A DNA stretch of 63,249 nucleotides, the filler included, from Kipferlia bialata (Eukaryota): assembly GCA_003568945.1 (NCBI GenBank). It is 5 parts of 4 records of this genome, joined end to end, with 100 filler letters (N's around TTAATTAATTAA, not from the genome) between each part and the next. Parts side by side here need not be neighbours in the genome. Positions count along the whole stretch, not along the records: positions 54,956 to 63,249 come from BDIP01000052.1; 4 more parts are not named here. One strand, 5' to 3'. The position numbers were made by a program, and so were the translations under genes. The notes under the pieces are model-generated. The model did no database searches. It was not told the origin of the DNA and saw nothing but the letters and a program-made list of their open reading frames with translations. Below, in pieces: positions 1 through 62,800 of this stretch (positions are counted from its first letter, which is position 1; each line of letters begins with the position of its first letter).

Positions 1-584
1 ACTTGACTGCAAAGGCACGGTACATGAGTTCTATGGGTAAGACGGAGAGAGAGAGAGAGAGAGAGAGAGCTAAGTTGTTATACCCAAGAATCGTAGGGAG
101 GGACTCCCCTTCTTCTCGTATGAAAGGCCACGAATAGAGAATATACACATAGACAGTGGGGTATATATATATATATGAGATATACATACCTCCAGCTCGT
201 GTGTGGCCAGCTTCTGCAGGCATGCCTTGACCTGGGGGTCAGAGACTGTATGTAAACACACACATATATATACATATGAATGCATTTAGAGCCGAAAGTG
301 TATGGTCAATCATCATTGACATAGGGTCAGACATTGACAACAATGTATATGGTACGTATCTCAGTAATACACGGCAGTTATGGCTATATATCAGGTCTGG
401 GAGTCGGGATGTATGATATGGACTGCGATGTAGAGGCTAGCTGCCACTGCCACAAACCTTGTTGTCAAAGAAGGGAATAGAAAGGAGACTGAAACCAAAA
501 CACATGCAACAACCCACAGAAAGCAACTCGGTGGGGATAATCATACTCAATTGCACTCACCTCGTCGTTCTTAAGCTCAGCCAT
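1..584 (-). CDS. 5' part of a multi-exon hypothetical protein gene (runs off the window)
   Basis: ATG at 584; exons 561-584 (MAELKNDE|gtgagt), 190-231 (VKACLQKLATHELE), a tentative exon ending near 84, and an exon from about 30 (ELMYRAFAVK). GT-AG introns with typical acceptors. No recognised family. Confidence 0.55.
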
Positions 585-1143
585 TGTCTCTCTGTCTCTC
601 TCCAGTGAGTAGCTGAGAGGGGTCGTGGTTCGTCTGCTCTCTTGCTTCGATGTCTGTTACTGTATACCTCACATCTCCCATCTACAGGTGAGGGGTGATG
701 GTGAACAGGAACTATGAACTGTAGACACACTTGGGTTGTCAGACATTCATGCAGTCACTCTCTATCCCCCTACTTCTGTAACGGGGAGAGAAATACATGC
801 AGTCTTACTGTACGACTATATGTATTCATTTAGCTGGTGACCAGCCTGGTCACTGTACTAAATAGAGGCGATCAATGGCAAATTCGTGACATGTCACTTA
901 ACAGTGTCAACAATGTAGATTCATGACAACCATCACTCACCTGTATACAGTGCCACTTTTCGATGATTACAGATTTGTGCCAACCTAGAAACCGAGCCAC
1001 CAGAGCGATCGGAGCGAGAGAAAGCAATAGGGCATCTTGCGACACTATTTCAAAGATAGAGGCCATTTAGAGGACTAAATTCGTCCGACATGAATCAGAC
1101 CAGGGAAGAGGCCCTGTCTCTTCCACCCATAGCCTGCACAGCA

Positions 1144-26987: not shown

Positions 26988-27034
<47 letters not shown>

Positions 27035-27668
27035 CTTTCTATTTTCTCTCTCTCCATACATCTACGTGTGTAAGATATCATACTTACATATCAGAACCGA
27101 GTCCCAGCCCCTCCACGATGCCTCTCTCTCTCTCTCTAACTCCTTCAATATGCAATATATGTACTAATGACATGTACTAACATCAGAACCGAGTCCCAGC
27201 CCCTGCCTGATGCCTCCCCAGCCGAGGGGGTGCTACTGAGACACAGTTACAGGTATATATACATTCTACATGATTTGTTTCTATTTATAACTATATAAAT
27301 TAGAACAGCCCCTACACACATTTATGTTACATATCTATTCTATATCTGTGTTTTGTACTATATCTGTGTTTTGGTGTGTCTACTTGTATCCACACTGACC
27401 CCCAGAGACCTTGTGCCCCTTGCCCCTGCCCTCCAGAGCTGCATAGCAATGAGGTATACTATTATATACATACATATATAGGCACATATGTATATTAGAC
27501 GAAAGTTTGTGAAGCACATCACATTTGCATATTCACCAGTATTTCCCCTCCAAGACTGCCAATATGGTTTATATCCCTGTATGTATGTATATATATATAT
27601 AGTAACCCCTAGAGGTGTCCAGTCCCTGCCATCCATGACAACCAGTATACTCTTTCTCTCTCTCTCTT

Positions 27669-27713
<45 letters not shown>

Positions 27714-27802
27714 ATATATATACGTATACTAACATCTAGGGGTGTCCAGTCCCTCCCCTCCATGACAACCAGATATACTCTTTCTCTCTCTCTCTCTCAC
27801 TC

Positions 27803-27837
<35 letters not shown>

Positions 27838-29136: not shown

Positions 29137-29171
<35 letters not shown>

Positions 29172-29208
29172 TCACATATACAACCCCAGATATCGGCGGT
29201 ATGTATAT

Positions 29209-29245
<37 letters not shown>

Positions 29246-33455: not shown

Positions 33456-35887
33456 AGAATTTGATGAGAGCATGATACGCAGTGCCAGTAGTGTGTACCT
33501 GGTGCCCGGCCTCTCCTGCGTCCCTGCCCTGCCACTCTCTTGTACCTGGTATCAGTAGCAGTAGCAGCATATATATATATATCAGTATAGGAAATATAGG
33601 ATACTGATAATCTGCCCTGCCACTCTCTTGTACCTGGTATCAGCATATATATATCAGTATCAGTATATAGGATATATATAGGATATATATCAGTATATAT
33701 AGGGATACTGATACTCTGCCCTGCCACTCTCTTGTACCTAGTAGCAGTATATATGTATGTATGTATCAGTAGCAGTATATATTGGATACTGATACTGGTA
33801 CCTCTCTAACAACATGATACTGAGCCTGACAAGTTCCGTCTGACTCCGCTTCTGCTCCGCCTCTCTCTTCACCCTCCACTCTCTCTCCCACTTCTCCAGT
33901 CCGCCACCCTTTCGGACAGCAGCAATCAACCTGGCAATCAACATAACATATCAAGAGATGAGTGAGAGAGAGTATATTACAGTATACATATTTAGCAGCA
34001 ATCAACCTAGCAATCAATAGAGACCAGGGGAATCCCCTGTGGGGATGAAAAATAATGAGTATACAATTAATGAAGAACACTCATCCTACCTCGCCATAAC
34101 AACAATACCAGGGGAGGGCCCCTGGGCCCCATCAGTAACTACGGGGACCAATGCACGGCCTACAGTCCTCTCCTGGGACTCAAGCACCTTCGACCCAAGC
34201 CGGCCTAGGTCCCCAACAAGCCCCTGCAGAATCAGTATGAGTTAATACTATGGTCTATAGATACACACAGAGTATAGTCTCTAGATATATATATGTATCT
34301 ATAGTCTATGGATACATATATACTATAGATACAGGTTCAGACATTAGTACAGGTACTGGCCCAGTATCAGTATCAGTATATATACAAGTACTGATAATGA
34401 TGCCTATGATACTTATACGCATACATATACTGATGCTATTATACCTTCAATTGTATCAGACGGTCACAGTAGTCTGTACATTGCGAAGTGTTACTGCCAA
34501 AGGGAAACACTAGCCGCGCCATCTGGTATTAGTGTCAGTATCGCTTCATTGTTTCATGATTGAAACTATCTTATCGAAAGGACACTTCGTGAATGACTAG
34601 TACTAATATAATACCTGGTCCATCTCGAATGCATGCAGAGGCTGATCTAGGGCACTCCCTCCTGTACCCTTATTGCACAACCAGCGATACCCAACCACGC
34701 TGTCTGCCAGCCATGTGAATCCAATAAGATCCCCAGTAGGATCCCTATAGATATGTTCCCCGCCAGAGGCCGCTGATAGCATCTCGTCAACCAGTCTGAT
34801 GTGAGAAGAATCTTCTCAGAAGATACTATCTTCAAGATAGTGATAAAGAGAATACAGAGATACACAGAATCTGTGACAGATACAAATATGGACATAGATA
34901 ACGGGAGAGAGGGCGGTTGGCAGGAACGGTGTGATAGAGAGAACACAACACACACAAATATATATGTATGCATATGTATAACAATAGACAGGAGACAGGC
35001 GATTGACACCTCACAGGAGTATATACTATATAGTATGTAACCATGCTCTATACACTCATTCACTATATATAGTGTATATATAGTATAGATACCTCCTAAT
35101 TTGTTGTTATAAACTAGTTATAAATTCTAACTACTATACCTCATTAACACCAAACTGGCAGTCGCGTATGTACATCTGAACTGGCCCATATGTCTCTCTC
35201 TCTCTCTCTGCAACTTATTCTCCTGCTGCCGGCCACCCTCCTTCTTTCTCTCTCTCCTCTTCCTATCCCTCGCTCTCGCCTCTCTGTCACCATGCCTATC
35301 GTGCATACGGCGCTTGGCAGGTGTGGTACGGTCCTTGTGACTGCAGCTGTTCTCGCCGGAGGCCTCTGTCACCCCTGGAGACACAGACCCACCAGGGCCT
35401 CGCTTCTGTGACAAGTGCACCCTATGGACACTGAGTGAGTGATACAAGGGAAGATATGTTTGTGTAATTACTGTCCTTTCCGAATTAGAATATTGAGTAT
35501 ATATAGAGTCAGCAATCGGCTGCGTACATCGAGAGAGTGCTGTAGTCATACACAAGAAGATTACAAGTGGGAGCGCTGTCATAGGGAATCTCTGTCAGAC
35601 AGATACTCTATATGTACTGTTCAGGATATATTTAGCATATACATACTACGTACTGGTCAAGGATAGGCTGGCGCAGGTGTATGATCCGCGGGTTGCCAGC
35701 TACCAGCCTGGGGTCAATGCATGTACCCCAACCCGCCCACAACTATATCCCCACTGTTCCCCTTCAAGCCTATCTCCTCACAAACCACTCAGGTCCACAC
35801 AGCAATAATGAAGTGCTCTAGCAAGAAATATATCCCCCACCTGTACACCTGAAGGCACCGAGTATCAGGCTCTAACCGAGTGGTCAT
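32731..35887 (-). CDS. Multi-exon hypothetical protein
   Basis: Candidate ATG 35887 (MTTRLEPDTRCLQVYR). Exons include RLVDEMLSAASGGEHIYRDPTGDLIGFTWL..., MARLVFPFGSNTSQCTDYCDRLIQLK, GLVGDLGRLGSKVLESQE..., LIAAVRKGGGLEKWEREW..., GEYIPDTCNYDRYLRGVKE, VPKAKIDRLRLF...ETYRC*. No recognised family. Confidence 0.6.
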
Positions 35888-35970
35888 CCAGCCGATATTA
35901 CAGGAAGCCAAGAATGGAATGAGAATAGAATAGCATTGGTCAGGATAGCAATGGCTGGCAAATCGGTCAT

Positions 35971-36020
35971 TTTCGCAAAGTAGATTTCGAAAAGTAGAGT
36001 TCGAAAAGTAGTTTTCGAAA
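35971..36020. promoter_or_regulatory. 14-bp tandem repeat (TTTCGAAAAGTAGA x about 3.5) in a divergent promoter
   Basis: tttcgcaaagtaga tttcgaaaagtaga gttcgaaaagtagt tttcgaaa between head-to-head ATGs at 35887 (-) and 36361 (+). The repeat is seen directly; a regulatory role is inferred. Confidence 0.4.
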
Positions 36021-36360
36021 TTCCCACCGGTGCACCCTCACCCACATTTTTGTGTGCAACATGAAGCACGTTCCTCAGTGACGTCGGGGGTCTGGGGTCT
36101 GTTCAATCCAACAATGGGCGGGCAGATTTGCCGACCACTGGTGGTCGGATATTATGAGTAGATTGTAGCTCATTCACGGCTGTAACTGGCTTTCTTCTGT
36201 GTTTGCCGCTGTTTGGAGAAGGATATGAGTATGGGAGACAGATTAGCCGGTGATACCGCAACAGGGTACGTGTATGCACTTCTGATACTCTTTTGGGTCG
36301 TGTTGTGGTCTTCTGCTGACTCATTTTCTTCTCTAGTCGAAGTATACTTATCCCAGGAAC

Positions 36361-38962: not shown

Positions 38963-39319
38963 ACTTGGAGAGAGAGACTGGGGATACCGGCCTCATATAT
39001 ATGCATTTATAGACAATAGCGTCATCGTCATGATAAAATAGGGAAGAGCCAGCAGTTTTCTGAATGGTGTTATAGAGGGAGTGTATATATTTAGTTGGGT
39101 ACTTTGGGCATAGTTCTGAGTAATCAGTGAGAAGTGTCTGATGAGACACTGTCAACATTTGACTGATCAGATCAGTCTGATCTCCGAATCGGAGCTCTCC
39201 TTCCTCTCCTTCGTCTCCAACCTACTCCCAGCTGTTCTGCACTTTCCCTTCTTACAGTATTTCCGCTGCTTCCCCTTAAGGGGGTCCTTGCAGATGCAAC
39301 AGCGTCTAATGGGGTCCAT
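38931..39319 (-). pseudogene. Small intronless C4 zinc-finger-like ORF interrupted by a 14-nt hairpin footprint
   Basis: MDPIRRCCICKDPLKGKQRKYCKKGKCRTAG... stops at 39167. Deleting 14 nt of the footprint at 39162-39183 fuses it in frame to ORF 38931-39158 (EISQMLTVSHQ...). Confidence 0.45.
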
Positions 39320-39467
39320 GTTAAAGAGACATACAGCTACGACCATTTCCACTTGACGTGACCATGATACTATCTATTGACAAACACTGTAGGCATCTCC
39401 TCCGGAGTGGACAGTTAAATGCTAAAAACCATAGAGACACAATTTACTTGGTATAGTGGAGTTTAAA

Positions 39468-39503
39468 TGCAGGGGAGTCTCCGATTGCAGGGGAGTCTCC
39501 GAT
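39468..39503. promoter_or_regulatory. 18-bp perfect tandem repeat TGCAGGGGAGTCTCCGAT x2 upstream of the PIN nuclease ATG
   Basis: Each unit holds the dyad GGAG-T-CTCC; lies between divergent ATGs at 39319 (-) and 39567 (+). Function inferred. Confidence 0.35.
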
Positions 39504-39566
39504 TCTCAGATAGACCGTGACACGATGATTGGCTATATCCACTCTTCTAGCACTCATACTGTAACA

Positions 39567-42557: not shown

Positions 42558-43242
42558 AATAATGAATACACTAAGTATACGCTCAGAGAAAATGTCTCCT
42601 CAGTACATGCAATGGTCTCTTTGTTTCGCTAGAGTTAAGAGTACCAAAGCTAGGATAGGGATATTCTTCATCATTTGTGTCTAAAACACATATATCCTCT
42701 TTACCTCACATTGGAAGACAAAGAGAGAGCACTGGACCCACTCTCTTTCGACCTGTGTTTTGATATCGCAAACAAAAACAATGTTTATTGAGCATTTATC
42801 CAAGGTGAGAAAAGGGTTAATGTACATTAATACACTGGGACGATAGATCTAACTCTTCTCTTTGAGCTATCGACCCTCGGTATGTGTACTTCTATTGTTG
42901 TCTGTATTATGGAATCCAGTCTCTGCTTGTACTCACCCTCAGAAGCGTTGGGAGTATTAACTACTTACTGATACGACGTCAAAAGGAGTCGTATACTGGC
43001 CCATTATGGAGATGAGCTTCGCAAAGAGGCCTGGCCTTGGACTTGTCCTCGGCCTTTACTCCACTTGGTACATTCTTGTTTATTGAATCCTGGGCCGCAT
43101 TGTGGAAGACTTCCACTGAGGTGGCTTAGTAACGCAACAGACAATTTCAAATTGTCAATTTGTCAGTTGCCTTGTGACACAAAAACTCAAGAGAGAAGGG
43201 GTCAGCCGAGACTGAGCCTCCTTGCCTTTATAGTAGCCAAAT

Positions 43243-44370
43243 ATGGACTTCTGCGACATTTTTGGGAACTTATTGTGGTTTGTACGTGTTCATACCTGTA
43301 TATTGTGATGTTATGGAAGAATTTGTGGGTTTCAGTGTGGGATAGTCGGTCATATGATTTCTTTTGTGTTTATTGACGCCAGATTGTAGGAGGAGAGATC
43401 GTCTTCCTCTTCTACCTCCTTGCTGGTGCCGTACTATGCGTCACAATCATCGGAATTCCCTTTGGAATCCAGCTCTTCAAGGTACCCGGATTTTGTTTCT
43501 TCATGGTACCGGTAACATTTTTTGGTACTGGTCCTATTGCTTGTATCGTCTGTGTTCACCTGGTAATCGTGTACTGTGTGGTCGTGTTAGCGTCGCCAGT
43601 GTATATCAGAGGGTTTGTCGGGCGGTTGGTCCTTGGAGTCCACTATAGTGTGCTATTATTGGATATCGGTGCAGAGTGCACTATGGGATTATGAGCTGGT
43701 CTACCCCTGTGGAAATAGTATATGGGACCACTGCTTGTAGTCTTCTGTCGTGTTGTGTTTGGGTCTCATTTATGTGGCCATTCTGTCTCTCCTATGACAC
43801 CATTTCTATATGACTCAGGTTATGCATCTTATACCGGAAAGTGATATGAGCATTTGTATAACAGGTGTGTCTCTTCTACCTCCTCTGACCCCAGATCGCC
43901 ATGTACGCTGCCTTCCCCTTCGGCCGTGTGGTCAGAAGGAGGCCAGACGCCACTGAGATGGGTATGTGACTCAAGTGTCATTGTATTGTCTTCTCTCTCC
44001 TATACTCACACTCAGGCATTTGCGGAAACGTTGTCTGGATGATCCTGGCCGGATGGTTCATTGCCCTGGTCCACACACTCGTTGGATGCCTGTTTGCCAT
44101 CACAATCATCGGTACGACTCCTGTCTAGTATTGGGACACACCTGCTCTCTCTCACTCCAGGCTGGCCCTTTGCCTGTGGCCACTGGAGACTGGCCAGGCT
44201 TGCATTCATGCCCTTCAACCACATTGTGGAGACCAAGTACCAGGTTCGTACACCACCCTGTGTCCCTGCCACTATATCATTGTATAATATATACCCTCTC
44301 ACCCCCTCAGGCCCTTGCCATTGAGCAGGAGAAGAGGAGGAACTACTACCAGCCCATGGTTGTGTACTAG
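43243..44370 (+). CDS. yccF: YccF-type (inner membrane component domain, duplicated) membrane protein, 6 exons
   Basis: MDFCDIFGNLLWFIVGGEIVFLFYLLAGAVLCVTIIGIPFGIQLFKIAMYAAFPFGRVVRRRPDATEMGICGNVVWMILAGWFIALVHTLVGCLFAITIIGWPFACGHWRLARLAFMPFNHIVETKYQALAIEQEKRRNYYQPMVVY*. Two copies of the GNxxW..GG..TIIGIPF..K.A..PFG unit. Confidence 0.9.
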
Positions 44371-45270: not shown

Positions 45271-45303
45271 TATATATCCACACTGTATACATATGATACG
45301 TAC

Positions 45304-46137
45304 CGACTGCCCTTGTGGGTAGGTACGGGTGGCCATCTGGGTCGCGTCTGGCTGGGGGGTGAGACAGACAATGAAGACATGGAATTATAAATCAGACTTG
45401 GACTTGTCTCACTGAATCAAAATGCAAGATGTACAATCAAGACAGGAATCCACACATATTTACACACATAATTGTATCCAATACCTGGCTTCCACTTGTT
45501 TGCACCCACTATGACGTCTGTCACAAGGGGGGGGAGGACAGCAGACATGTGGACTGGAGTAAGGTATGACCACACTATCAATACAATACTATTGTTCTAC
45601 TAAATGTATATGAATAAATACATAGATATGACGTCTGTCACAAGGGGGGGGAGAACAGCAGACATGTGGACTGGAAGTGAGATAGAGCAATATATGTATA
45701 TCATACACAATCAATACACGCACGCGACAAGTATTTACAGATATTGATCTAATACAGACATGTACCCATTACACATACATGAATTATACATACGATATCT
45801 GTCAGAAGAGGTCAAAGGAGTCAAAATATATATCCACATACATCAAAGAATACCTGGCAGGAGACCATACAATGCCTTGAGTGCGGCAGGTGCAGTGGGG
45901 TATATGCATATATAAGCTATGTTTCACATATACATATGAATATATATATACATATGAATATATATATATATACCTGGAAGAAGGCCATAGAGTGCCTTGA
46001 GTGCGGCAGGAGCCGTGGGGGGAAGTGGGTTCACAGGGTTGTGCTGAGGTGAGGGGTATTATGGATAGACATATTAATTGACATATACACATATATACTC
46101 AGGTTCACAGGGTTGTGCTGGGGGTTATATACAGAAG

Positions 46138-46174
<37 letters not shown>

Positions 46175-46211
46175 ATATACATACCGCCGATATCTGGGGT
46201 TGTATATGTGA

Positions 46212-46246
<35 letters not shown>

Positions 46247-47545
46247 GAGAGAGAGAGAGAGAGAGGGAGAGAGAGAGAGAGAGAGAGAAAGAGCCATACC
46301 GCCGATATCTGGGCCCCGCCTCTGGGGTTGGTGACTGAGTCACTCACAACGTCATATACTGGGGTTAAGATATATATATATATATATATATGGAGTTATT
46401 ACTACGTAGGTATAATATATATATAGTATATATATATATATATATATATGAATATGGTTGGTGACTGAGTCACTCACAACGTCATAGACTGGGGGTAAAA
46501 GAGAGAGATTTTAGTAATGTATATATATTATGTATATAATTAATATATATATATATATATACTAATATTGTTGGTGACTGAGTCACTCACAACGTCATAG
46601 ACTGGGGGTTAGAAGGGGGATATATAGTTAAACATATGAGGGAGATATGCAGACAAGTATACATACATATAAATATATATATATATAGTTGGTGACGGAG
46701 TCACTCACAACGTCATAGACTGCTGTTAAGAAGGGGATAAAAATACATACATATCAAAATGTAATCCATTCAAATACTCATTGAAAAGGTCACTTAGAAT
46801 TAATGTATATTCATATATATATGTTTATGCAATACATACCAGGCAGGCGTGAGAAATCTGGCTTGATCAACTGACACTTGCTCTAAAATATTGTAAACAA
46901 ATATAAGTAGCTCTATCATTATATATACAATACCGTACCAGGAAGGCGTGGGAAGTCTGGCCTAGTGAATACTGACACTCATATACACTATTATAATGAA
47001 TATAATATTTATACAATACTACCATTATATATATGTAATACATACCAGGTAGGCGTGGGAAGTCTGGCTTTGTGATCCTCTCTGCCCTCAGCTTGCCCGC
47101 TGGGTCGGAGATGGGGACCCTAGGGGTGAGAATAGAAGGTAACCTACATATGTGTATATATACTCACATGAATATATTGATATATATGTAAATGATGAGT
47201 CTGCCAGCTGGGTCGGAGATGGGGACCCTGTAATTAGTACTTGTTCGTATGTATATGAATTTATCCATATCTATGGATTGAGTCTGCCGACTGGGTCGGA
47301 GCCTACCATATGCAAATAGTGCTAGTACATATATATATACTAATAACCCTATATACTGATACACACCTTGCCAGGAACCCGACTGTCTCGTCCTCGCCAG
47401 TCATGGAGGGGAGGGACTGGACACCCCTGGGTGTAAATGTGTATATATAAGAATACATATATATACGAAGAGAGAGAGAGAGAGAGAAAGAGAGAGTATA
47501 CAGATAGCTGTCATGGAGGGGAGGGACTGCACACCCCTGAGGTTA

Positions 47546-47580
<35 letters not shown>

Positions 47581-47669
47581 GAGTGAGAGAGAGAGAGAGA
47601 AAGAGTATATCTGGTTGTCATGGAGGGGAGGGACTGGACACCCCTAGATGTTAGTATACGTATATATAT

Positions 47670-47714
<45 letters not shown>

Positions 47715-48348
47715 AAGAGAGAGAGAGAAAGAGTATACTGGTTGTCATGGATGGCAGGGACTGGACACCTCTAGGGGTTACTATATATATATATACATAC
47801 ATACAGGGATATAAACCATATTGGCAGTCTTGGAGGGGAAATACTGGTGAATATGCAAATGTGATGTGCTTCACAAACTTTCGTCTAATATACATATGTG
47901 CCTATATATGTATGTATATAATAGTATACCTCATTGCTATGCAGCTCTGGAGGGCAGGGGCAAGGGGCACAAGGTCTCTGGGGGTCAGTGTGGATACAAG
48001 TAGACACACCAAAACACAGATATAGTACAAAACACAGATATAGAATAGATATGTAACATAAATGTGTGTAGGGGCTGTTCTAATTTATATAGTTATAAAT
48101 AGAAACAAATCATGTAGAATGTATATATACCTGTAACTGTGTCTCAGTAGCACCCCCTCGGCTGGGGAGGCATCAGGCAGGGGCTGGGACTCGGTTCTGA
48201 TGTTAGTACATGTCATTAGTACATATATTGCATATTGAAGGAGTTAGAGAGAGAGAGAGAGGCATCGTGGAGGGGCTGGGACTCGGTTCTGATATGTAAG
48301 TATGATATCTTACACACGTAGATGTATGGAGAGAGAGAAAATAGAAAG

Positions 48349-48395
<47 letters not shown>

Positions 48396-51300
48396 CAGGC
48401 AGGGGCTGGGACTCGGTTCTGAAGGGTTAGTGTCTCAATACACTCAGAGACACTATAGCAGAGATAGAGTAAGCCCTGGATATACCTCTTTCCGCTCTCT
48501 ATCTGCAGTGACACCAGGTACTGGTTCCATGTGTCAGAGTCCGAGTGGCTGTCCTTGCATCTGAGGGGTAAGAAATACATATATACATATAAAAACATAT
48601 TAATGCATATATATATATATATATTATCATCAGTATCAGTGGCTGTCCTTGCACCTGGAGGAAAGGAGAACGTCATATATCACTATTACTAACAACTACA
48701 TGTGGCAACCATGCAGCGACACCCCACATATTGCAACTATCTCTCTCTCTCTCTATACCAATATATATACATATATATTGGCTGTCCTTACATCTGGAGT
48801 TAGTAATAAATATATATATTAATGTATATGGTTATATAACATTGAGCAGGTAGTGTGTGTGTTCCATGTGTCAGAGTCTGAGTGGCTGTCTTCACATCTG
48901 GTGACGAGACGTATAAGGAGTACAGAAAGCATTAACGTTGTATACTAACACAAATACATGTATTCCGATACCTGTTGATGACATCCACCATGCCAGTCCG
49001 AATGAGAATAATATACACTATATATATATATGAGTATATACTATGCATACTATTTATATGCATGATATATGTGTACATAAATATATATACACACCTGTTG
49101 ATGACATCCACCATGCCTGTCAATGTATTAGTACTACACACTATGAAATGCATTCTATACATATACATTATACAACTACTCTGTATCTATATGTATCCCA
49201 TACCTGTTGATGACATCCACCTTACCGGTCTCATCACCCATCTCGGACAGGAACCTGGCAATAAGGGTGTAGCGGGAGAGAGAGAGAGAGAGTACATACT
49301 AATCCTTATAACTTGATCACCTTCGCGAAGGGTGTAAATTAGGGTGTTGGCAGAGAGAAAGAGAGAGGGGGAACATACTAACCTGACATACTCTGCGAGC
49401 AGCTCTGCATTGGTGGGGTTGGCACGGATGCCAGACTCAAACCTGAGACGTGAGTGTATATATAGATGATACACATAGATGACACATATAGATGATACAT
49501 ATAGATGATACATATAAATAATATACAAAATAAATGTGTGTGTGGTGGTGGGGGGGGAGGGGGTTGGCACGGATGCCAGACTCAAACCTAGGGGGTTATC
49601 CACTCACAAACATCGTCAAACATAGACTCCTGTACATAGGTATACCTGTCAATAGCGTTCTGCCTTGCTGTGCCTGACCTGCCCATCCGGTGGTATATAT
49701 ACATACTAATATATCCAATATACTATATATATATATATATATATATATTATACCTGTTGATAGCATTCTGCCTTGCTGTGCCTGACCGACCCATCCCGTG
49801 GTACTCGAGTCTGGCCACAATGGCATAGAGGACAGACGGGACAGAGGGAGAGCCTATAGTGAGACATATGATATATGTATATATATATATATAGTACATG
49901 TATAGGGTATCTAGTCTGGCCACAATGGCATAAAGCACAGAGGGGACAGAGGGGGAGCCTAGGGTTATAAATATATATAAATACATATATATAGAGAGAG
50001 ATGTATATATACAATGGCATAGAGGACAGAGGGGACAGAGGGAGAGCCTATGGTTAGGTATACATATATGCATGTAGAGAGTACAAACATGGGTAGTGTA
50101 TATAATCTAGACACATTGTAGAGCTTGTAACACACCTAGAATCTTACTGGGATCGTCGCATGCCAGCTCAAATGCCGAAAGGGCATCAGCCACTGAACGG
50201 GTGCGGGAGACATACTTCATGTACTCACTACAGTTAGAGAGACAGAGAGAGGGATAGAGAGAGAGGGCATCAGCCACTGAACGTGTTCTTGACACGTACT
50301 TCATGTACTCACTATAGTTAGATAGAGAGAGAGAGAGAGGGAGAGAGAGAGAGCGAGAAAGAGAGAGATGGGAAATAAACGCATTAGCCACTGAACGGGT
50401 GCGGGAGACATACTTCATGTACTCGCTGAGAATGAGTGGGAGAGAGCGTACCAGAATAGGAAGAGAGACAAACACACACACATACACACACATACACACA
50501 GTACCTGAAGAGTGCTGGGCTGGGTGCGGATACAATAAGCACATGCTTGTAATATATAGATAGTACATGGAACACATGAGAGAAAGATTACCTGAATAGA
50601 GCTGGGCTGGGTGCCGATATGAGTGCCCTTCTGTAGACGGCATCGGCCAGGTGGCGCTTGTTGTTCTAGTTGTTAGATTGAGAATAGATTCAATACTACC
50701 AATGATTGGAATCCATTTAGACAATAACCCATGTCAACGCATATTATACTGGTATATATACCTCCTCGTATCTGTCTGCCAGACACATGTATAGCAGGGC
50801 ATATCGATAGTATTAAATACAGTTAGTAAACACATATATTCAAATATTTGCATATACATATATATATATACTGTACCTCCTCGTATCTGTCTGCCAGACA
50901 CATGTAGAGCAGGGCACACTTGGGACAGGCCAGGATGCCCCTCTGGAGCAGACCTGGAAGTCAATATATATATATTTATATTATATATTTATATTTATAT
51001 TATATATTTATATTTATATTATATATATATATTTTTCTATATCTCGGTATATATATAGATATTCTACATTGGGACAGGCCAGGATGCCCCTCTGTGAGTA
51101 TAAGATACATATATACTAGGTCCACACTAAATATTAATGCATATATATGTGTGTATCTATATATATTGGGACAGGCCAGGATGCCCTTTTGCAGAAGGCC
51201 TAGGGATGAGTATATATAACAATATTCATACATATCATATATATGTATCCCTCTCTCACTCTTTGAATATATATATAAAGTACTATACACACCTATTGCA

Positions 51301-51941
51301 ATCTCCTTGCCAGTCAGTGCCCCGTATGCCATGTCGTGCTTCAGCATGGTGCGAGACATGATAGTTCTAGAGGTAAGGGTAGATAGATATATATATAGAG
51401 AGAGAGAGATACTAAGATAGAGAGTGAGTGAATGGTGCGGGACACAATGGTCCTAGAGATCATGCATAGAGCCACAAAGAGTATGTAAAGGAGGGAGAGA
51501 GACAGCAAACATAGTCAGTACTCATATAATGCAATATATATATTTATATACCTTGCCCCCGACATGACCTCCGCTGCCTCGATCCACAGGTCGGGCCAGT
51601 GCCTGGGGTAAAAAGACATAGGTAATACGATTATAAATTCGCCATATGAATACGAAGATAGAGCGAGTATATACATATGTATGTATGAGTTATCAAAGCC
51701 AGAATACTATTTGGAATACAAATATCTGTATATATCCGTATATGTACATGAAATAGAGAGTACCTCAGGTGCAGCAGAACATGCTCATACACAAAAATAA
51801 CGAGATTACCAATATATGTACAAATACATTACTACATAGATTCATAGTCAGAATAGAAGAGAGAAAGTACCTCAGGTGCAGCAGTACTTGCTCATTGACA
51901 TCAAACACACAATAGTAGTTGGAATACATAAGAATATACTA

Positions 51942-51978
<37 letters not shown>

Positions 51979-52307
51979 TGTATGTATACCTCAGGTGCAG
52001 CAGTGCCTGCTCGTACACAAACAATAGTCTGTTGGCAGCGAGACCAGCGTCAAGCTGCATGGAGTCGCCTAAAGTCAATTGAGAGTCAGGAATAGTCACA
52101 AATAGTCGGACGGATCTCCAATTTGTTGTGAATAATATGAATACTGTGGTACGTACCGAGCAGTCTCTCAAAGTCAATGACTTCAGTCAATACAAGATAT
52201 ATATATATACATATAAGATACATAGAGTGACCCAGTTAATTGAGTGACTTACACGTACCGAGTAGTCTCTCAAAGTCAATGACGTCCTTCCAGAGGGCCA
52301 TCTGAAC
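45304..52307 (-). CDS. CSTF3: Mirror copy of CstF-77 exons 23076-30079
   Basis: Reverse complement of the + strand copy, inside the duplicated contig. Confidence 0.7.
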
Positions 52308-52353
52308 CTGAGGTTACCAGACCGATGATGAACGGGGGGGGGGGGGGGGGGAA

Positions 52354-52401
<48 letters not shown>

Positions 52402-52421
52402 GTATCCACATAACACCCCAC

Positions 52422-54758
52422 CTGTCGTGCTGGATGGTGACCTTCAGCATCCAGTGCTTACCGGCACCCATGTGGGCTGTGGTCACGTCCTGCCTCAGTG
52501 TCCTGATGTCAGTATCAGTATCAGTATTAGTATCAGTATCAGTATCGATACTGAGAGATTGACATTGCTACTGTCACCTGATGTCCACTGTGCCTCCTGT
52601 GATCAATACAGCACCCCCTGTGAATGACTCGGGGGGGATGTGCTCGGCCACCTTGCCAAACATGAGGGCGGCAAGGCCTGGCGTGGGGGGGGGGGGAGGG
52701 AGTGCATATATACATAGAGTACATATAGCAGGGCACACCGACCTGAGACACTCCTCTTGGCACCGTGTGTGTGTGTGTACCCGAGGTTGAGGAGGTATGC
52801 GTGGCCGAGCTGCTCCTCCGTCAGATGAGAGACAGAGTGCACCAGGCCCATGGTCACCATGTAGTCGACTGAGAGGTAGGCTGTGAGGAGGGGGTCTGCG
52901 TGGAGCATGTAGGTGTGCAGCAGGGTCCTATCCTTGGCCATCACACTCCTGAACTCGACAGAGGAGAGGGAGATACCCTCCCCCGTGCCCTGGCTGTCGT
53001 GGGACATGCATGCAGAGACACACACCTTGGACGCCATCTCCTCGGACATGCCCAGGAACCTAGGTGTAAGTAAGTACGTCAAAAAAATATACAAATAACA
53101 CACATAAGAAATATGTATGGCACCTGAGGACACCGGAGAGTGTCTCTGAGGTGACAGTCATGGTCTCGATGGGGACACCTGGGACGGCAGAGGGCATCTC
53201 GTTCAGCCAGTCCTCAAGCACACCTGGGGGTGAGGGATAGTATATATGAAGAGAGAGAGAGTGAGAGGGCAAGGCCTCCAGCACACCTGGCGGTAATGGA
53301 CAGTGGTAGTATAGAGAGAGAGAGAGTATGAGGGTAAGGCCTCAAGCACCTAACACTCAATGATAGTGGTAGTATATAGATAGATAGAGTATGGGGCAGG
53401 GTATGTATACCTGAGGGGTGTGCGTAGTCGTGCTTGTTCCTGGTCCACCTGGCCTCTGCAGCATATGTCATGGAGGTCATGTCATGGGAGGACTGGGGGG
53501 TGAGGGTCATTCTATATATAAATAGAAAGAGAGAGAAAGAGAGAGATGGAGAGATGGAGAGATTCTGTCATGGAGGTCATGTCATGAGAAGACTGATGTA
53601 AGGGGTAAGAGAGACAGAGAGAGAGACATAAATATAGTCCCGCACCTCGATGTTGGCAGCTGGGGATGCACAGTGGATCCTGACTGGCTTGGATGGGACA
53701 CCGGCTGTCTCACAGGAGGCAGCATAGAGGGCAAAGGCGGCAAGGGTGCCAAACTCCCTGGATGTCAGTATATACCAGAGTACGTACCACTCATAAATGT
53801 ATATATATATATTGTATATGTATATTCGAATAGATACCTAGAGTTGAGCTTCCTGTTTGGCACCACCACGTCTGACAGCACGTCCTGGCCATCCACCACA
53901 CACTGGCCCTCCCACAGCTCCTGGGCGGCAGTGCCCAGACCAACCATGGCATACTCCCTCTCAGTCCCTGGAGGTAGGAGGGAAAGGAGGGGAAGTGAGA
54001 GAGAGAGAGAGAGAGATAGAGAGATAGCCAAGGCCCACCACGGCATACTCCCTCTCGGTGCCTAAAGGGGTAGGAAGGGAGGTGAAGTGAAGGAAGAGGG
54101 AGAGATTACGTACCTGGTGCCATGTAGAGCCCCTTGTCAGCGTCTGCCTCTGCCGCAGCCCTGGCAGCCTCCATGGTGTCCTGTCCATCCCCGTCGATGA
54201 AGACGACTGATGCCCACTTGCCACAGACAGGGGCCTCGGACATCTCACGGCCTGGGGTAAACGGGGGGGGGGGGTTATGGTTAGAGAGACTAGTGGGTAC
54301 TCAAGAGAGAGTCACTCATAGTCAAGAGAGAAGAGATTAGACACTATAGGACACTCTCTCACCGATTGTGCATGCCGTGTACATCTGGTAGAGCCCAGAG
54401 AGCCCCAGGGGCCTCCTGGCATCCACGTAGAGCACTGTCTTGAGCCTCATGTGGGAGGCCACGGTGGCAATCTCCAGCAGGTGGAGGGCCAGGAACGGGG
54501 CCTTCTCGGGAGAGTATGGGATGTGGATGGTCCTATCGGAGGAGCCCGGGGGAGGGGCAAAGAAGGAAGAGTCCAGACCGGCCTGGGGTGAGGGACTATA
54601 TCACTACATACAGAGGAAGAGACTCAGTCCATGGGTGAGTATACACAGACACCCACCGAGAGAGCGGCTCCGATGATGACACCGGCAAAGGCCCTGACGG
54701 AGATGTCTCCCATCCTCTGGATGTTCTCCAGCTTGACCACCCACTGGCCATCTAGGTC
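52422..54758 (-). CDS. Mirror copy of hypothetical gene 20625-22961
   Basis: Reverse complement, inside the duplicated contig. Confidence 0.6.
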
Positions 54759-54855
54759 CTAGGGGGAGAGGGAGAGAGAGAGAGAGAGAGAGAGAGAAGC
54801 ACAGAATGGGAGGGGGGGGGGGGGGGGGGGGTGGGTTGTTTTTTAGACAAAAAAA

Positions 54856-54988: not shown

Positions 54989-57529
54989 CTGCATGCGCTG
55001 CCACTGCCCTATCTCTGGGTCTAGGGACCAGCAGTCTCTGAGAATAGAGGCATCGTCTGTCCTGCCTCCTAGGGGGTAAGTATATGTATAATATTGTGAC
55101 TCTAGTATTTATGATACTGATACTGTCACTAGACCAGAGCAACAGCAGTCTCTAAGGAGAGAGGTATTGTTTAGTTTGCCTCCTAGGGGTGTGTATTCCA
55201 TTCAGAGTATACCCGCCATGTCATGATGTATCATATCTTAGCCAGGATACTTGAAGGTTTCATACTGGTTGTATCATACCACCCATGTATGCATCAATTG
55301 TATGAGTACTGACTCTTCGGTGCATATACATACAACACTGTATTTTACGTATACATATGGGGAAGGGGAGACAGTACCTGCAATGTAGAGACGGCCTCCC
55401 AGTGTCCACGAGGAGTGTCCGTATCTAACGTTAGAAAAGTAATAGAAATGTAGGTAGAAATATTAATTCTATAGCCTAACGACGAGTGGCCGTATCTAAT
55501 GTTATCACAGAACAGTAATTGGCTATTACTGTTACTAATGGTATCATAAGTAACCGTATACCACAATAGTCAAGACGACTATGAATGTAACCTATGTATA
55601 CAGCCTACTATATATAATCTACTATATGTATAATCTACTACATACGTAATCTACTATATATGTAATCACCTAGCACAAGGCCACTTGTCAGTCTCTCTCT
55701 CTCTCTTACACTCAGTCCACTCCTTGGTGATCAGGGAATACACCGCTAGCCGGGAGAGAGCACCCACTGATGTTAATTACTATATAGGTTATTGTATTTT
55801 ATATGTCTATTAGTTTCGTAACCAGATCACCTCCTGGGGTAAATACTTGTATATAGGAAGAGAGCGACATATCAACGAGCTGAGATATATTCATTATTTT
55901 GCCGTTGAATTCAAATGTATGTGTGTATATATGTCGTAATGGCAAAGATCTGTGTTTACATGGGGGGGGGGGCACGTACTTCGCTGGTTATCCCCTCCGA
56001 ACTGCAGTATGAAGTCTCCTATTCTAGTGCCAGGTGCATGAGCAACCTACTATGAGTGTTGTACACTTAATATACTATATTTTTATATATATTGTATATA
56101 TAGTATATTTGGTAAATATACATATATGTGAACTGCAGTATGAAGTCTCCTATTCTGGTGCCTGGTGCATGTGCAACCTATTCTAAGTGCATATAGTATG
56201 TATATACACTGTAAGCCATATGGTTTATATACTACATCTATTAACACATACTGCATACTATATATTAACAACTATTTGTATCTAGTGCCACGTGCATGCA
56301 CAAACTATTCTAAGTTAGAATCTAACTTAGAATTTCTTAGGGCATATATTCCATATATAGTACGTATGTAATGCAAACTAAATACACAACGCACACTACA
56401 TTTACAATATCTAAATACACATAGGAAGAAGAACTACAATGTATGGGAGGCAAGAGCAGCCCCAACTTGTTCTGAGTGAAAAGAAATATCAGTATAATAT
56501 CATTACTCATAATAGTAATAGTGTATATATTGTAAGAGTATATGTATAGAAACTCCCTATCTCTTTCCCTAATAGGGAGAGAGTAGGTGGGAAGAAGGCG
56601 TCATCATGTTATAGTAAATACAATACTAGATACTAATTATTACTTGTATATATATTGAGAGAGAGGGTGGGTGGGAAGAAGACATCATCAATATTCAATA
56701 TTTATTATTACAACTAATGTGTACCTCCATATCTGTGTGTCTACTTATAATATATATATATATATATATATACTATATATTGTATAGTATATTCAATATA
56801 TACTAATACAACTAATGTGTACCTCCATATCTGTGTCTCTACACCCTATATACTTATAAATATATACTTATAAGTATTACTTATATATATATATTATTCA
56901 ATACCACTAATCTGTACCTCCATATCTGTGTCTCTACAATCCAATTTGGGCTCACATGAGTAAGAGTAAGGTCCAGGGGCCTGCGGTGAAACGAGGTTCG
57001 CAGATACACCACAGAATAGGTCTTCTAATCTGAGCAGAGATTGGAAATTCCAATTTGGAATATATGATACATCATATCTCAACCACCAGGTCCATCAAAC
57101 TTGCACTCAAACCTTCTGGGTGCAAGTGAGGGTATACATATACATACACACACTCACACACACACACATATATATATATATACATATACATATTTATATA
57201 TACATATGCATACATACACACACATATATATATATGGGTATATGTCTACAAATACATTTGCATAATATGCATTGCACACATACATACATATATATGTGTC
57301 TATATACACATATGCATACTTTTACCTTCTGGGTGCAACTGAGGGTCACATGCGGGTAGTAGGGGAACCCATGCATGTTCTTTCCTGCAATCACTGCAGA
57401 ATACTCGTCTCCCGGAAGGAGAGAGGGGGATGGGGATACACCATCTGCTGAAAGGGTGCCACTGTATGCCAGACACACACACTCCCCCTTATGCTTCGCA
57501 TCATACTCTGTCCACTTGATATCAGGCAT
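54989..57529 (-). CDS. Kelch-repeat protein, intron-rich, 3' end lost at linker
   Basis: MPDIKWTEYDAKHKGECVCLAYSGTLSADGVSP...TQK|APGPYSYSCEPK...|VAHAPGTRIGDFILQFGGDNQR|..LAVYSLITKEWTECKRERETDKWPCAR|YGHSSWTLGGRLYIAG|GRTDDASILRDCWSLDPEIGQWQRMQ. Canonical Kelch R-x-x-H, GG, DxW and W motifs. Exon structure between 56.4 and 56.7 kb is unresolved. Confidence 0.8.
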
Positions 57530-58641
57530 CAACCTCTCAGAGAGACCAGAGAGAGCGATAGAGAAAGCTACAGGAGAGCAGCTTCATATCTCTCCGACTT
57601 TCCAGAATCGGAGATTTTTGCTCGCTCACACCCTTTTGTCATATTGGCCAGTGTCTCTCTACCATACATGGCTTGGCTTAATAGCCGCAAGAAACATAGA
57701 CGAGAATCATACAGGGTGTCTGGTCCAGACGCTGGGTGTTCGGACCGCTATGGATTCTCATTTCCAATATAACTTAGTTACCAGACAATCATACTTCTGG
57801 CTCTAGTCAGTTTTGGAACTGGCAGAAACATGAGTGTAATTATAGCCCCCCACATATTGATATGTGGCACTTACTGATATGAGTATAGGCAGCAGAGAGT
57901 TAATATACTAATGGATTCAGGCCAGCGCTATGCAGAATCGTGATCTCGTGACTGATAATATCAGTCTGATATACAGACATTTACACTCGTCTGAATCTAT
58001 CTTCCACTTCAACATCATAACGTACCTGAGTGCCAGTATATGTATACTGTCAACTACATTACTGCCCTGCATAAAGACGTACCTCTGTCTGCAATGCTGA
58101 AGTACTTATGCGCCTGATGTACTCTGTGGTCTGTGTGTAGAATCTGCGTATCTGCAGCATTCATATACATATGCACTGTAGGATACAATGTATACACACC
58201 CTTACCCCCTGACACTGCGGTGCACTGCTTCCCGGGTATTCATTCAAAATTCACTACGTGTAAGTAAAAGAGTATCACTATATCGTATAGTGACTATATA
58301 GTGACTATATATCACCCCCCAACCGAATTTCACAGCTATATCGAAACCGATCAAAGGGGTACCTCAGCCCCAAGACAGTCTATACTGTGTAGGTACTTCC
58401 ACTATATGCCTTGGGACAACATGCCCTAGCAGTGCTGTGACTGGTTTCTACTGTTGAGTCAACAGTATTGACTCAACACTGTTGAATCTATGCGCGTTTG
58501 AACATCATCCCTGAGAGAGCTCTATACAGTCCGGAGTGAAAACCTCTCGCTCGATAGAAACCATACTGCAGTAGAAGGCTATCATGACTCTTCGCCACTA
58601 CCGTGTGTCTTCTTTACCTAGCCTAAGGGATATATAGTCAG

Positions 58642-60888
58642 ATGGCTCGGATGACGGACCCTGTAACTGGACACCGCTATGACACACACACAGAGCAGCT
58701 GACACGTGACACATTTGAAGTTCCACAGCAGCTCTTAGTGGATAGAGGCGAGAGAGTATATGGCAACCCACTAACATGTGTGTACCTAGGCCCTCTCAGC
58801 GCTGATGGTGTCTCCCCCGCCGAAACACTAGAGGAAGGCCAGCACTACGTGTCAGACTGACACTGTCAGTGGTCATAGGAGGGCAAGGGCGTAGATCATC
58901 AGGCTCGCGTTTCTGCCAGACCAGCTGTGTGCTGTTGACCCTAGATACTGGGACTGGACACTGTCCAGTGGACACTGTCCAGTGGACAGTACACTTCCGA
59001 GGTGGTTCCAGGCGTTCCTGTCTCCGAGTGTGGTTTAGACCCCCTAACTGCCGTACGCAATGGTGACTCAGTGGTTGTTTTCGCTAGTTCTCATCAGATT
59101 AAGAAGCCCCGACAGAGTTATGGTTATTCTGAAGCCACGACACTTGTGAATGCTCTATACGTATATTCCATCAGGGACAAGACATGGAGAGTTGTGCCTA
59201 AGAGTGGAGAGTGGCCCAAAGGGAGAAAGAGTGAGAGTTCTTGGTGTCTCGGAGGGCGATTCTACATTGCAGGTGGCATGAACCAAACGGGTATGGCGCT
59301 GAATGACTGTTGGAGATTCGACTTCCTTTCAAATGAGTGGACCCAGCTTTCAAACGCCCCAGTGGCTTTCTGCTTATCCTGTACAGTGGCAGACCTCGAC
59401 ACTGTCCATTTGTTTGGAGGCTGCGGGTCATACGATGATACAACAGTATGCAAAATGCACGTAACATTCAAGAGGTCGTCTAATAACGCTGGGTATTGGC
59501 GTCAATGTGCTGATCTTCCCATAGTGGTGAGTGCAGCAGTTACTTTACAATATTGACCCATATTTAAGTAGGTAACACTATGTCGTACTCTGAGGATATT
59601 GCCCTGTTTCTGGGACGCATACATTGCAACTGTACTGTCTGTCCGACAGACTGTGCAAGACGACAGACTGTCGTCTTGCTTACGATAGGTGAACCGGATG
59701 GCAGGCCTTGTAGCCCAACCCGTTTTCATAAAACCCAATGTGTACCTCATGGGAGCTCTCAGACACCATCCTGACAACTCCAACAGAGGCTTAGATAGGT
59801 ATTGGTATGTCTCCAGGCTCGGTTCTGGAGAATGGATGCAAGTGATGACTAAGACACCTTATGCGGCGTACTGTTGTTGTGTTGCTGGACCGCGTACTAT
59901 CCTGGTACATCATGCATCAGGTAGGCAGGGGTGTCTGACGCTGTGGAAGACGGTTGAGAGCCCGTGGGAGAGAAAGAGGAGAATGGAGAGGGAACGTCAA
60001 CGTCAGACTGCAAGGCAGCGCAGCAGAGAGCAGCAGAGGACGAGCACAAGCACTCACACTCCTCCACATGTGTACCCCTACCCTCCTACAGACCACTCTA
60101 CAGACAGCAAGGCCACTAGTACACCAAGAGCTAACACTGGAGCTCGTCCAAGTATGTTCAACCGGCCACATGCTACCAGTTGGGGGAGCACTCACCCTGA
60201 GAGGCAGAGCATGCAAGAGAAGGCGAGAAAGAGGAGAGAGGAAAGAGAGAGAAAGAGCCAACATGAACAGGAACAGAAGCATGAGAGTGAGAGGCAGAGG
60301 GAGAGGGGGAGATCTGATAGTGCACAGCACTTACACCGGCAAGAGAGAGGGGATGCAGATGCCCGGGAGAGAGCTAGGAATTTCAGTGCCTGTACAGACG
60401 ACTATTACAAGGTACCTCACCCCGCTATCTGAAATTTCAAGGATACGTATATTTACTATACATATATACTCTAATTGTCACGTAGAATATGTTTGCTATG
60501 GCAGCTGCTCTCCAAGGCTAAGCATAGATACTTGGTGTCGCCCAGAGTTCAAGTCTCACAGAGATCAGCAAGGCCTTCCGGAGGCTAGCGCTCAAGTGGC
60601 ACCCAGGTCATATAGTTACATTGTTAGTATTGAATCTAGATGCACTGGTATTGATATAGAAATGATATATATTCCAACACACACCAGGTTCTGCAGCAGA
60701 ACCTCTGCTCGAATGCGCAATGTTACTTTAAAGGTATTTCTTACACCCCAGACCACAACCCAAACAGAATTGAGATGGCGTCTATGATGTTCAAGCGAAT
60801 CACAGCTGCCTATTCAGTGCTCAGGGAGCCTCAGGAGAGGGCCGCATACGACAAGTACTGCTGGATGCGGCTGTACGTGAACCAGTGA
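58642..60888 (+). pseudogene. Kelch-repeat + C-terminal DnaJ (J-domain) protein, frameshifted by hairpin footprints
   Basis: Kelch blades (WPKGRKSESSWCLGGRFYIAGG..NDCWRFD..W; VHLFGG). J-domain spliced over introns 60412-60527 and 60607-60751: DYYKILGVAQSSSLTEISKAFRRLALKWHPDHNPNRIEMASMMFKRITAAYSVLREPQERAAYD (HPD intact). Frameshifts at 58849-58870 and 58954-58989, and a further break at 59550-59690. Confidence 0.75.
58849..58989. mobile_element. Two putative DNA-transposon (hAT-like) excision footprints
   Basis: gtgtcag-actgacac-tgtcagt and ctggaca-ctgtccag-tggaca-ctgtccag-tggacag, i.e. T[1..7]+revcomp(T)+T[2..8] of an 8-mer. No element is present; transposon origin is inferred. Confidence 0.55.
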
Positions 60889-61113
60889 CCATGTGTAGGA
60901 GTGCCACTATATATTCAGCGCGCTTGGGGCTTTGAATACTTCTAGTGTTGAATAGACACTACTTAGTTCACTCCCAATGAAGCTTTGGGGTATATGAGGG
61001 ACTTGAACTGAGTAGCAGATTGAATTGTAGGGTGACAACGAATCGTTGACAACAATCTCCCTTACTCTGTGTTCCGTGTAGACTGTTGTGTCTCAATGAA
61101 ACGCAAACACGAT

Positions 61114-62800
61114 TTATGGCCCATGGTAGTTCGCAGCTGCCTCTCTCACCCTTTCCACATCCACGTGTAGTATGTAGTGCTTCCCATCCCACGTCACCAG
61201 GAAAGACGCGGGACCAACCTACTATCAACCGAGTGACCATATGCATAAATACACACACACACATATACACAAATAAGAATATACATAAGTGTATATCATT
61301 ATACAACACACATATCCTGCAGTAGTATATATATGGTAAATATTTGATACATATACTTGGAACCAACCTGTGCCCGGACCTCCCATGCACACTGGTCCTG
61401 TGGCACTGCCTGGAAGAGAGGGGACCACTGCCCCGAGACAGGATCCAGAGCACTCACTACATACCACCTACGTGCCGCAGCTGGGCCAAGCATTACGCAG
61501 ATGACTAGACTTCCCACTCTTATTAGAGATCTCTCCATGATACTGCCTCGAAAGTCCTGTAGAGCCCTCCTCCAACCACTCTCTGCTGTGTACTCATTGA
61601 AGATAACCGTGCACTCTGACTGCCGTCCTTCATACTCCATGATGGTGGCTGTTCCAGAGAAGAGGGTATCTCCTATCACGAACCGAACTGATCTCATCTT
61701 TCTCCGAAAGTGACGCCGCCAAGACCGTTTAATGACGCCGTGTCTTTGCTCTGTCCACTGCTGAGAGGTAGGATCGAAGGTCCAAGTGTGGCCGTGCTCA
61801 TAAAATACTAAAGCACCCCCAACATTGTATAGAGTCTGGTGGTGAGCACGAGATTCATGCAGCCAGTATTTGTGTGAACTGAGAAGCAGATACAAGCCAG
61901 CAATTACGCCAGAATGTCTCACTGTGACATACTATGATACTATGATAGTATGATACTATCACTCACCCCTGGTCCCTCTGGTCTCACCCCCTGCGCATGG
62001 CTGGTCCAGGTACCTGGGGTTAGTGTATCTATCTATCTATCTGTCTATCTATATACTAATATAACTATCTATATATCTATATCTATAATTATCTCTTCTT
62101 ATATTTATATATAGGCATAGTGAAGTAGAGTGAAGTGCATGGCTGGTCCAGGTACCTGAGGTTAGTGTATCTAATAGATACTATCAATAGCAACACCTGG
62201 GTCATTTAGTACAAGTGACAGAGAGAGGCAGGGATGGTGACAGAGGAACATAACACAAATGGAAATGGAAACTGAGATGTCACTGACACGTAAATCTAGC
62301 AGTTACTATCAGCACTGGTAATCTACCTGACTCATGGTTGAACATATATACATATACATATACATTCATATATATGCGTGTGCATCATCCATATATATAT
62401 ATATATATAGTGTATATACACATATTATACCTGACTCATGGTTGTACATCCACAGTTTCACAGGGTAGTCACCCAGGTCAAGAGTACCCCACTCCCCTCT
62501 GTGTCCATCAATCTCCTGCCTGATAAGATACGAGACCTCACCCACCCTCACACAGGAGGTATACTCAATCTCGGGACATCCCTTGCTCTCCTCTCCCCTC
62601 CGAAACACTGGCTTGCCCCCCTCCCCCTCTCTGTCCAGGGTGTATACGTATCCGTCGTGGGTGTTCAGGACTGACCCAGGCCAGAGAGGCATGGGGGAGA
62701 AGTGGGGTGAGGCTATCTCAACCTCTTCTAGCCACACGCATGCGTCTCTCGTTTCAACCAGATCTCTGATGGAGAGGGTTGGAAGTACACCGGGAGTCAT
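61114..62800 (-). CDS. Divergent Kelch-like / beta-propeller protein, 4 exons
   Basis: MTPGVLPTL...SCVRVGEVSYLI...KLWMYNHES|GTWTSH...PG|TLYNVGGALVF..TWTFDPTSQQW..FVIGDTLF..SALDPVSGQW..RAQ|VGPASFLVTW...NYHGP*. Repeated DP-x-S-x-x-W and VG/IG motifs. Confidence 0.7.

Follow-up and report, generated by a model that had tools for sequence, protein, structure and literature searches.

Transposases of the hAT group leave hairpins on the DNA flanking an excised element (PMC5499845, PMC4763223, PMC3299998), and both this chemistry and hAT footprints as a mechanism class are already known. Footprints of Ac/Ds, described in Saccharomyces cerevisiae, Arabidopsis, and Candida albicans, display palindromic P-nucleotide additions and microhomology joining: each Ds palindrome has at its center the complement of the base that adjoins the element, and the figures for microhomology are 85-100% in Arabidopsis and 88-89% in yeast (PMC5873905). 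Such footprints are diverse and mostly short, and long arms of up to 20 nt occur in yeast (PMC5873905). Here we describe a stretch of Kipferlia bialata DNA (the window; 63,249 nucleotides, assembly GCA_003568945.1) that carries scars of a single recurrent shape: a word, the inverted word, and the word again, 22 bases in the form T[1..7]+rc(T)+T[2..8], for a net gain of 14 nt. Palindromic addition and microhomology are shared with Ac/Ds; the difference is that Kipferlia displays one full-length inverted-target product at natural fixed sites, whereas its short footprint classes, unlike those of Ac/Ds, are not clearly above background. These +14 scars are probably templated insertions left by hAT-type excision, likely repaired by hairpin annealing rather than by Ku-dependent joining. 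The source element itself would be of the hAT type.

The window consists of five contigs joined by N44-TTAATTAATTAA-N44 linkers. One contig of 9,585 bases is present twice, in opposite orientation and with 100% identity (20528-30112 and 45271-54855); the second was left out as a reverse copy of the first, and the non-redundant sequence scanned was 53,267 bases. An exon at 39435-39866 agrees with a K. bialata protein at 86 of 87 residues, which places the DNA in that species or a conspecific strain. Matches to T[1..k-a]+rc(T)+T[1+b..k] were tallied at k from 5 to 13, with a and b each from 0 to 3 and N and dinucleotide runs being filtered out. Controls were 12 local dinucleotide shuffles, and also shuffles preserving 3- to 6-mers, 15 each, with scars masked first. 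Contigs from two runs were consulted as well: X1, possibly made from the same DNA as the window and hence no independent sample; and X2, which is only guessed to be RNA.

A preliminary description of this DNA had expected a k=8 peak, each side losing one base, and a sharp peak is what the window yields against the shuffles. With a=b=1, exact matches number 9 at k=5 (six of these being copies of one duplicated repeat), 0 at k=6, 3 at k=7, 7 at k=8, and 0 at k=9-13. The seven at k=8 compare with 0.0 per shuffle in both kinds of control. If at most one mismatch is allowed, 14 matches compare with 0.08 per local dinucleotide shuffle and with 0-0.13 in the 3- to 6-mer-preserving shuffles; the 14 comprise 12 clear sites, the second half of a doubled site, and a doubtful AT-rich match at 56766. 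Offsets (1,1) dominate the 4x4 register grid at k=8: registers (0,0), (0,1), (1,0), and (2,2) have 0 exact matches, and the others at most 2. Five k=9 matches in register (1,3) are taken to be re-readings of k=8 scars. Words of k=9-20 at about 10% mismatch gave nothing new beyond known scars, and allowing two mismatches adds 61035 at k=8 and 44635 at k=9.

The length of the inverted middle is equally restricted. Where T[1..7] and T[2..8] enclose a middle templated by rc(T), middle length 8 gives 7 matches (0.0 in controls); the counts for lengths 3-7 are 0, 1, 0, 1, and 1, and no match has a length of 9-16. Among lengths 3-16, length 8 alone occurs more than once. Middle length 2 gives 10 matches against 4.45 in controls, five of the 10 lying within known scars. 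This suggests that short footprint classes are rare, in a comparison that has low power against chance. The diverse spectrum of short P additions and deletions that is seen in hosts with non-homologous end joining (NHEJ) was not found in the window.

The sites, with their sister echoes and the gene segment that two of them interrupt, are as follows; strand is given where one is assigned.

57951..57972, exact +14 scar, target ACTGATAT
58451..58486, decayed compound scar; the inner event has 1 mismatch, the outer is mismatched at both tip bases
58849..58870, exact +14 scar within the kelch frame, shifting the frame and carrying a stop
58954..58989, doubled scar (+28) in the kelch frame, the 14-nt unit in tandem
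59637..59679, complex scar; a second 14-nt inverted copy extends 6 nt past the target
60688..60709, +14 scar with 1 mismatch, likely in a DnaJ-gene intron (the intron inferred from sequence)
61035..61056, decayed +14 scar with 2 mismatches
61928..61960, compound scar inside a GT..AG minus-strand interval, 61836-61966, that X2 contigs skip
62167..62188, +14 scar with 1 mismatch, between two X2-contig exons
62025..62032, sister echo in the ancestral state, with the 62167 target as a plain 8-mer
57040..57061, exact +14 scar, target ATTGGAAT
56307..56340, compound scar: two events at one site or slipped doubling
56180..56187, sister echo, with the 56307 target as a plain 8-mer
43141..43162, exact +14 scar, target ACAATTTG
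39162..39183, exact +14 scar, target ACTGATCT
34803..34840, a pair of exact +14 scars (34803 and 34819) that overlap, targets offset by 2 bases, intronic
34863..34881, exact 7-base-word scar (+12), in the same intron as the preceding pair
34025..34046, +14 scar with 1 mismatch, intronic
833..851, exact 7-base scar; alternatively an 8-base scar short of 2 nt
58627..59556, plus strand, kelch-repeat gene segment broken by scars 58849 and 58954
57374..57529, minus strand, paralog fragment of the kelch N-terminus, which aligns further to the scar-free reading

All sites listed in the preliminary description were recovered where it had placed them, with 57951, 58849, and 39162 exact, and 58451 and 62167, which it had called near-exact, at 1 mismatch each. 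Site 58954, reported as doubled, reads exactly T[1..7]+rcT+T[2..7]+rcT+T[2..8], each 22-mer half having 1 mismatch; re-insertion models tried by hand do not fit it, and tandem slippage fits exactly. Site 59637, reported as complex, is exactly T[1..7]+rcT+T[4..6], a 14-nt inverted copy, and resumption at T4. The other complex version proposed, at 61928, is indeed a site, but a 9-base word fits it better than an 8-base one. To these the scan adds exact scars at 34803, 34819, 43141, and 57040; one-mismatch scars at 34025 and 60688; 7-base scars at 833 and 34863; the compound scar at 56307, whose nested and slipped readings differ by one base only; and the two-mismatch scar at 61035. Because X2 contigs skip the intervals containing them, 34025, 34803, 34819, 34863, 61928, and 62167 are intronic.

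Density is about 1 scar per 4.4 kb, in a window that was selected. Sites cluster, by a post hoc count: 7 of 12 lie in the last 8.3-kb contig (P 0.0008), and 0 of 12 in the first 20.4 kb (P 0.003). Together with repeat events at one spot (34803/34819, 56307), this clustering fits local hopping.

The kelch-repeat segment supplies direction. As it stands, frame 58627-59556 contains 4 stops; once both scars are taken out in silico (14 nt from 58849, 28 nt from 58954), it becomes 295 codons with 0 stops, and partial removals give 8, 12, or 16 stops. Although the two gains sum to a multiple of three (+14 and +28 = +42), this compensation of frame leaves the gene unrescued, as the 4 stops persist. 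Scar removal also lifts the local alignment scores with three K. bialata paralogs, from 293 to 336, 297 to 345, and 259 to 321. (These relatives, 43-46% identical, are the named ones among the single-domain-like matches of highest identity that were looked up from the 150 listed by an HMMER search; word-index searching with the kelch frame gave no matches.) The paralog fragment at 57374-57529 aligns with the scar-free reading over 6 more residues, its score rising from 65 to 76. Intron echoes carry the plain 8-mer in two further cases, 62025 (as the preliminary description had said) for scar 62167, and 56180 for scar 56307. An ancestral single copy of the target is thereby indicated at four sites: two from the kelch frame and paralog scores, and two from the echoes. 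Because the frame and the scores are restored and the echoes hold the plain 8-mer, the scars are insertions. Moreover, 14 is not divisible by three, and each excision from within an exon would therefore knock the gene out, as in the kelch gene. X2 contigs give no cover over that gene, which says nothing about its expression.

Three observations adjoin these. The stretch 57195-57672, which contains the minus-strand N-terminus fragment of this lineage-specific kelch family, is multi-copy, at 4-6 times the background X1 depth. The kelch gene is preceded, at 58270-58312, by a short palindromic and tandem cluster that reads as a 9-base scar only with 3 mismatches. Introns often carry diverged tandem echoes of the adjacent exon end and splice site, about 70-80% alike (61999-62035 / 62138-62175; 56015-56060 / 56131-56200 / 56275-56310; 27570-27983); such exon-end echoes may bear on intron gain in this intron-rich genome.

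The targets themselves are biased. Thirteen targets, read on both strands, were compared with random 8-mers from within 300 nt: T2/A7 is found in 15 of 26 readings (P 0.0017), and T1/A8 in 0 of 26 (P 0.0002). T2 or A7 occurs in 11 of the 13 targets, and both in four; none has TA at positions 4-5. Hermes targets show a like preference, nTnnnnAn (PMC10368747), and the 16 tabulated Hermes targets include no T1, no A8 among the 15 readable, and T2/A7 in 26 of 31 readings by our own count (PMC2803484). The 8-bp site, the favored T2/A7, and the lack of T1/A8 in the Hermes table as here are points of likeness to Hermes and hobo. The ACTGA that the preliminary description found common to three targets holds up, though as a weak, post hoc signal (P 0.012), and as a target consensus it was dropped in favor of the broader T2/A7 bias. 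The k=8 peak, the hAT-like bias, and the ancestral plain 8-mers together support the hAT-like traffic proposed in that description. The unusual hairpin joining that it offered as an alternative is not exclusive of such traffic; the data fit transposon traffic combined with annealing-type hairpin repair, in a host reported to lack NHEJ.

A general route to the scar can be proposed. An element would insert into a single 8-base site, duplicating T. Excision would then leave hairpins, T1..T7-cT8 at the left flank and cT2-T1 at the right one, as is established for hATs, whose transposases nick one base into the flank. Pso2/SNM1 or Mre11 might open each hairpin 3' of its apex, creating complementary 3' tails rc(T)[1..i] and T[1..j]. 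On paper, all pairs with i+j of at least 8 give the identical product T[1..7]+rc(T)+T[2..8]: 43 of the 64 opening pairs (i,j) converge on it, 28 of them with at least 2 nt of overlap. That openings converge on one product is geometry; why this product dominates we infer. Pol theta or a similar enzyme would anneal and fill the tails, and occasional slippage or fold-back would account for the doubled and complex sites. Tails annealed through T2..T7 would regenerate the site tracelessly, and the scars that can be seen would then set only a minimum for the number of events.

The repair inventory of the host is compatible with such a route. K. bialata is listed without Ku70, Ku80, Lig4, XRCC4, DNA-PKcs, Artemis, and CtIP, and with Mre11, SNM1/Pso2, and PolQ (PMC8516963, Supplementary Data 2). 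Loss of Ku, Lig4, and Artemis, with Pso2/SNM1, Mre11, and Pol theta kept, likely explains the single dominant product. Without Ku and Lig4, non-homologous ends would join poorly, and two products would be left: the +14 scar; and traceless T2..T7 annealing. Pol theta makes templated insertions (PMC6635534), and the forms at 58954, where the 14-nt unit recurs exactly in tandem, and at 59637, which parses exactly as two rounds of templating, are as would be expected of an iterative polymerase of this kind. A wider generalization is tentative and probably too strong, namely that in eukaryotes lacking Ku, Lig4, and Artemis hairpin-capped breaks funnel into one deterministic annealing product, making the +14 scar a sequence-only readout of NHEJ loss and a dated, countable map of past transposition. 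On that reading, and at the density found in this selected window, the process would be a major gene-breaking source of mutation in the K. bialata genome, with some ten thousand scars.

Several points weigh against hAT excision followed by annealing. Some concern the targets. Their bias is weaker than that of Hermes (15 of 26 versus 26 of 31), and only 4 of 13 have the full nTnnnnAn motif. Nor is the bias specific to hATs: the P element (8 bp) and 1360 (7 bp) share T2 (PMC3276498), and so the case it makes is firmer for a DDE transposase of this group in general than for hAT in particular. Scars with 7- and 9-base words are present (833, 34863, 61936, 44635), unlike hobo duplications, of which 99.8% are 8 bp (PMC3276498). 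Other points concern repair. In yeast, the Pso2 nick falls about 2 nt from the apex (PMC3299998), leaving tails too short to overlap, and deeper opening or fold-back extension must therefore be assumed. In NHEJ hosts hAT footprints are diverse, with 28 types in 128 clones (PMC5873905), and the link to NHEJ loss is based on one species.

Finally, unlike Hermes and hobo, the Kipferlia scars come with no identified element. As the preliminary description had observed, none is visible in the window: Pfam scans covering 166 of the 375 filtered window frames returned no transposase family, and a scan of the window for terminal inverted repeats with target-site duplications returned no convincing pair, three candidates being rejected as low-complexity. 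No filled or empty allele was found in the X1 contigs over 57570-62016 and 33615-35865, which represent one sample and, being contigs, drop rare variants. The text searched in the K. bialata genome paper and its three supplements has no mention of a hAT element, and 'transpos' appears there once, about Trichomonas (PMC5874029).

A separate motif was considered in the same search. At 35960-36025, upstream of a gene, four TTCG(A/C)AAA-type copies with 14-base spacing look promoter-like. As an element end this 14-period motif was rejected: individual X1 contigs cover it, the loose ends listed include no clear element end, and there is no sign of a multi-copy element.

Four other explanations have to be weighed against hAT excision with annealing. 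The first, which we consider unlikely though it keeps some credit, retains the flank-hairpin and annealing route and assigns it to another transposase of the hAT/MULE/P group (MULE 8-9 bp, P-like 7-8 bp) or to several families. The k=7 and k=9 tail, and residual palindromes with partners at distances of 6-9, are in its favor; P elements are not known to form hairpins when they cut, which counts against them. P and 1360 do make duplications of 8 and 7 bp with T at position 2 (PMC3276498), and the MULE Muta1 leaves flank hairpins and duplicates 8 or 9 bp (PMC5499845). MULE footprints are expected to show duplications of 8-10 bp and mostly precise excision. In Kipferlia, however, the mode is 8, not 9, with two 9-base cases, and Muta1 excision in yeast is more than 90% precise (PMC5499845), a kind of event that would be invisible here.

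The second explanation, improbable in our estimate, dispenses with insertion altogether: an 8-nt staggered cut, by aborted integration or by a host or retroelement endonuclease, would be followed by a 7-nt fill, closure or fold-back into the same pair of hairpins, and annealing. It yields the identical sequence on paper, and it accords with the finding of no element, filled site, or partial footprint class. Yet we know of no host pathway for such hairpins, and a target bias like that of Hermes speaks for a DDE transposase as the agent choosing the sites.

Template switching of the ordinary short-range kind during replication, or snap-back by Pol theta at randomly placed breaks, has very little probability left, and in the window it is already largely refuted. 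The scar is formally a 3-4-1-2 switch, with direct and inverted repeats (PMC7954356; PMC5453318); template switches in apes create such repeats (PMC7954356), and the complex site 59637 displays template switching. Ape events, however, are broad in length (median 12, median absolute deviation 4.5, maximum 128; PMC7954356), whereas in Kipferlia length and offsets are fixed and targets biased. The preliminary description had reserved this explanation for a smooth length distribution; the window instead has one length and both offsets fixed.

A library or assembly artefact, such as fold-back chimeras, is scarcely credible: X1 may share its DNA source with the window and is to that extent not independent, but its separately assembled contigs cross 57570-62016 and 33615-35865 unbroken at a depth of about 430-470 and carry the scars with 0 differences, which excludes an assembly slip, and the scars decay by substitution while echo copies and paralogs are scar-free.

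Long palindromic additions in footprints were reportedly seen by Yu (2004) and Colot (1998), and the +14 product may already be in print as one class among many. In the literature searched, no description was found of a fixed full-length inverted-target product as a natural genomic scar. The window contributes a host whose lack of NHEJ is documented, a logo of the targets, and a gene knockout that could be polarised.

Being short and varied, excision footprints cannot normally be recognised from one genome alone. The +14 scar is self-identifying, returns the original target site, and can be counted. If hAT-type excision with hairpin annealing is its source, it would let the target preference, hot spots, and history of the element be read after its loss; it would also be a natural test of hairpin-end repair in cells without NHEJ.

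Outside the known scars, short palindromes are also in excess. Those with a one-base center and arms of exactly 6 number 29 (3 of them tandem duplicates), against 10.5-12.3 in shuffled sequence and a maximum of 18 in 60 shuffles. Among 35 one-base-center palindromes with arms of at least 6, eight have a partner 7 nt away, where shuffles give about 1 of 15; at 6, 8, and 9 nt there are 4, 5, and 5 partners. The residual palindromes are likely decayed scars, which does not fully explain the excess, and the tail of partner distances may reflect a second element family.

Two other genes in the window deserve mention. Two exons at 43377-44321 encode a mostly bacterial YccF (DUF307) membrane domain, a possible gene transfer. 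The gene at 39435-39866, annotated as hypothetical, has a weak XPG_N match (E 0.02); XPG is reported as absent from fornicates (PMC8516963), and the product could be a divergent nuclease of the XPG/FEN1/Asteroid family.

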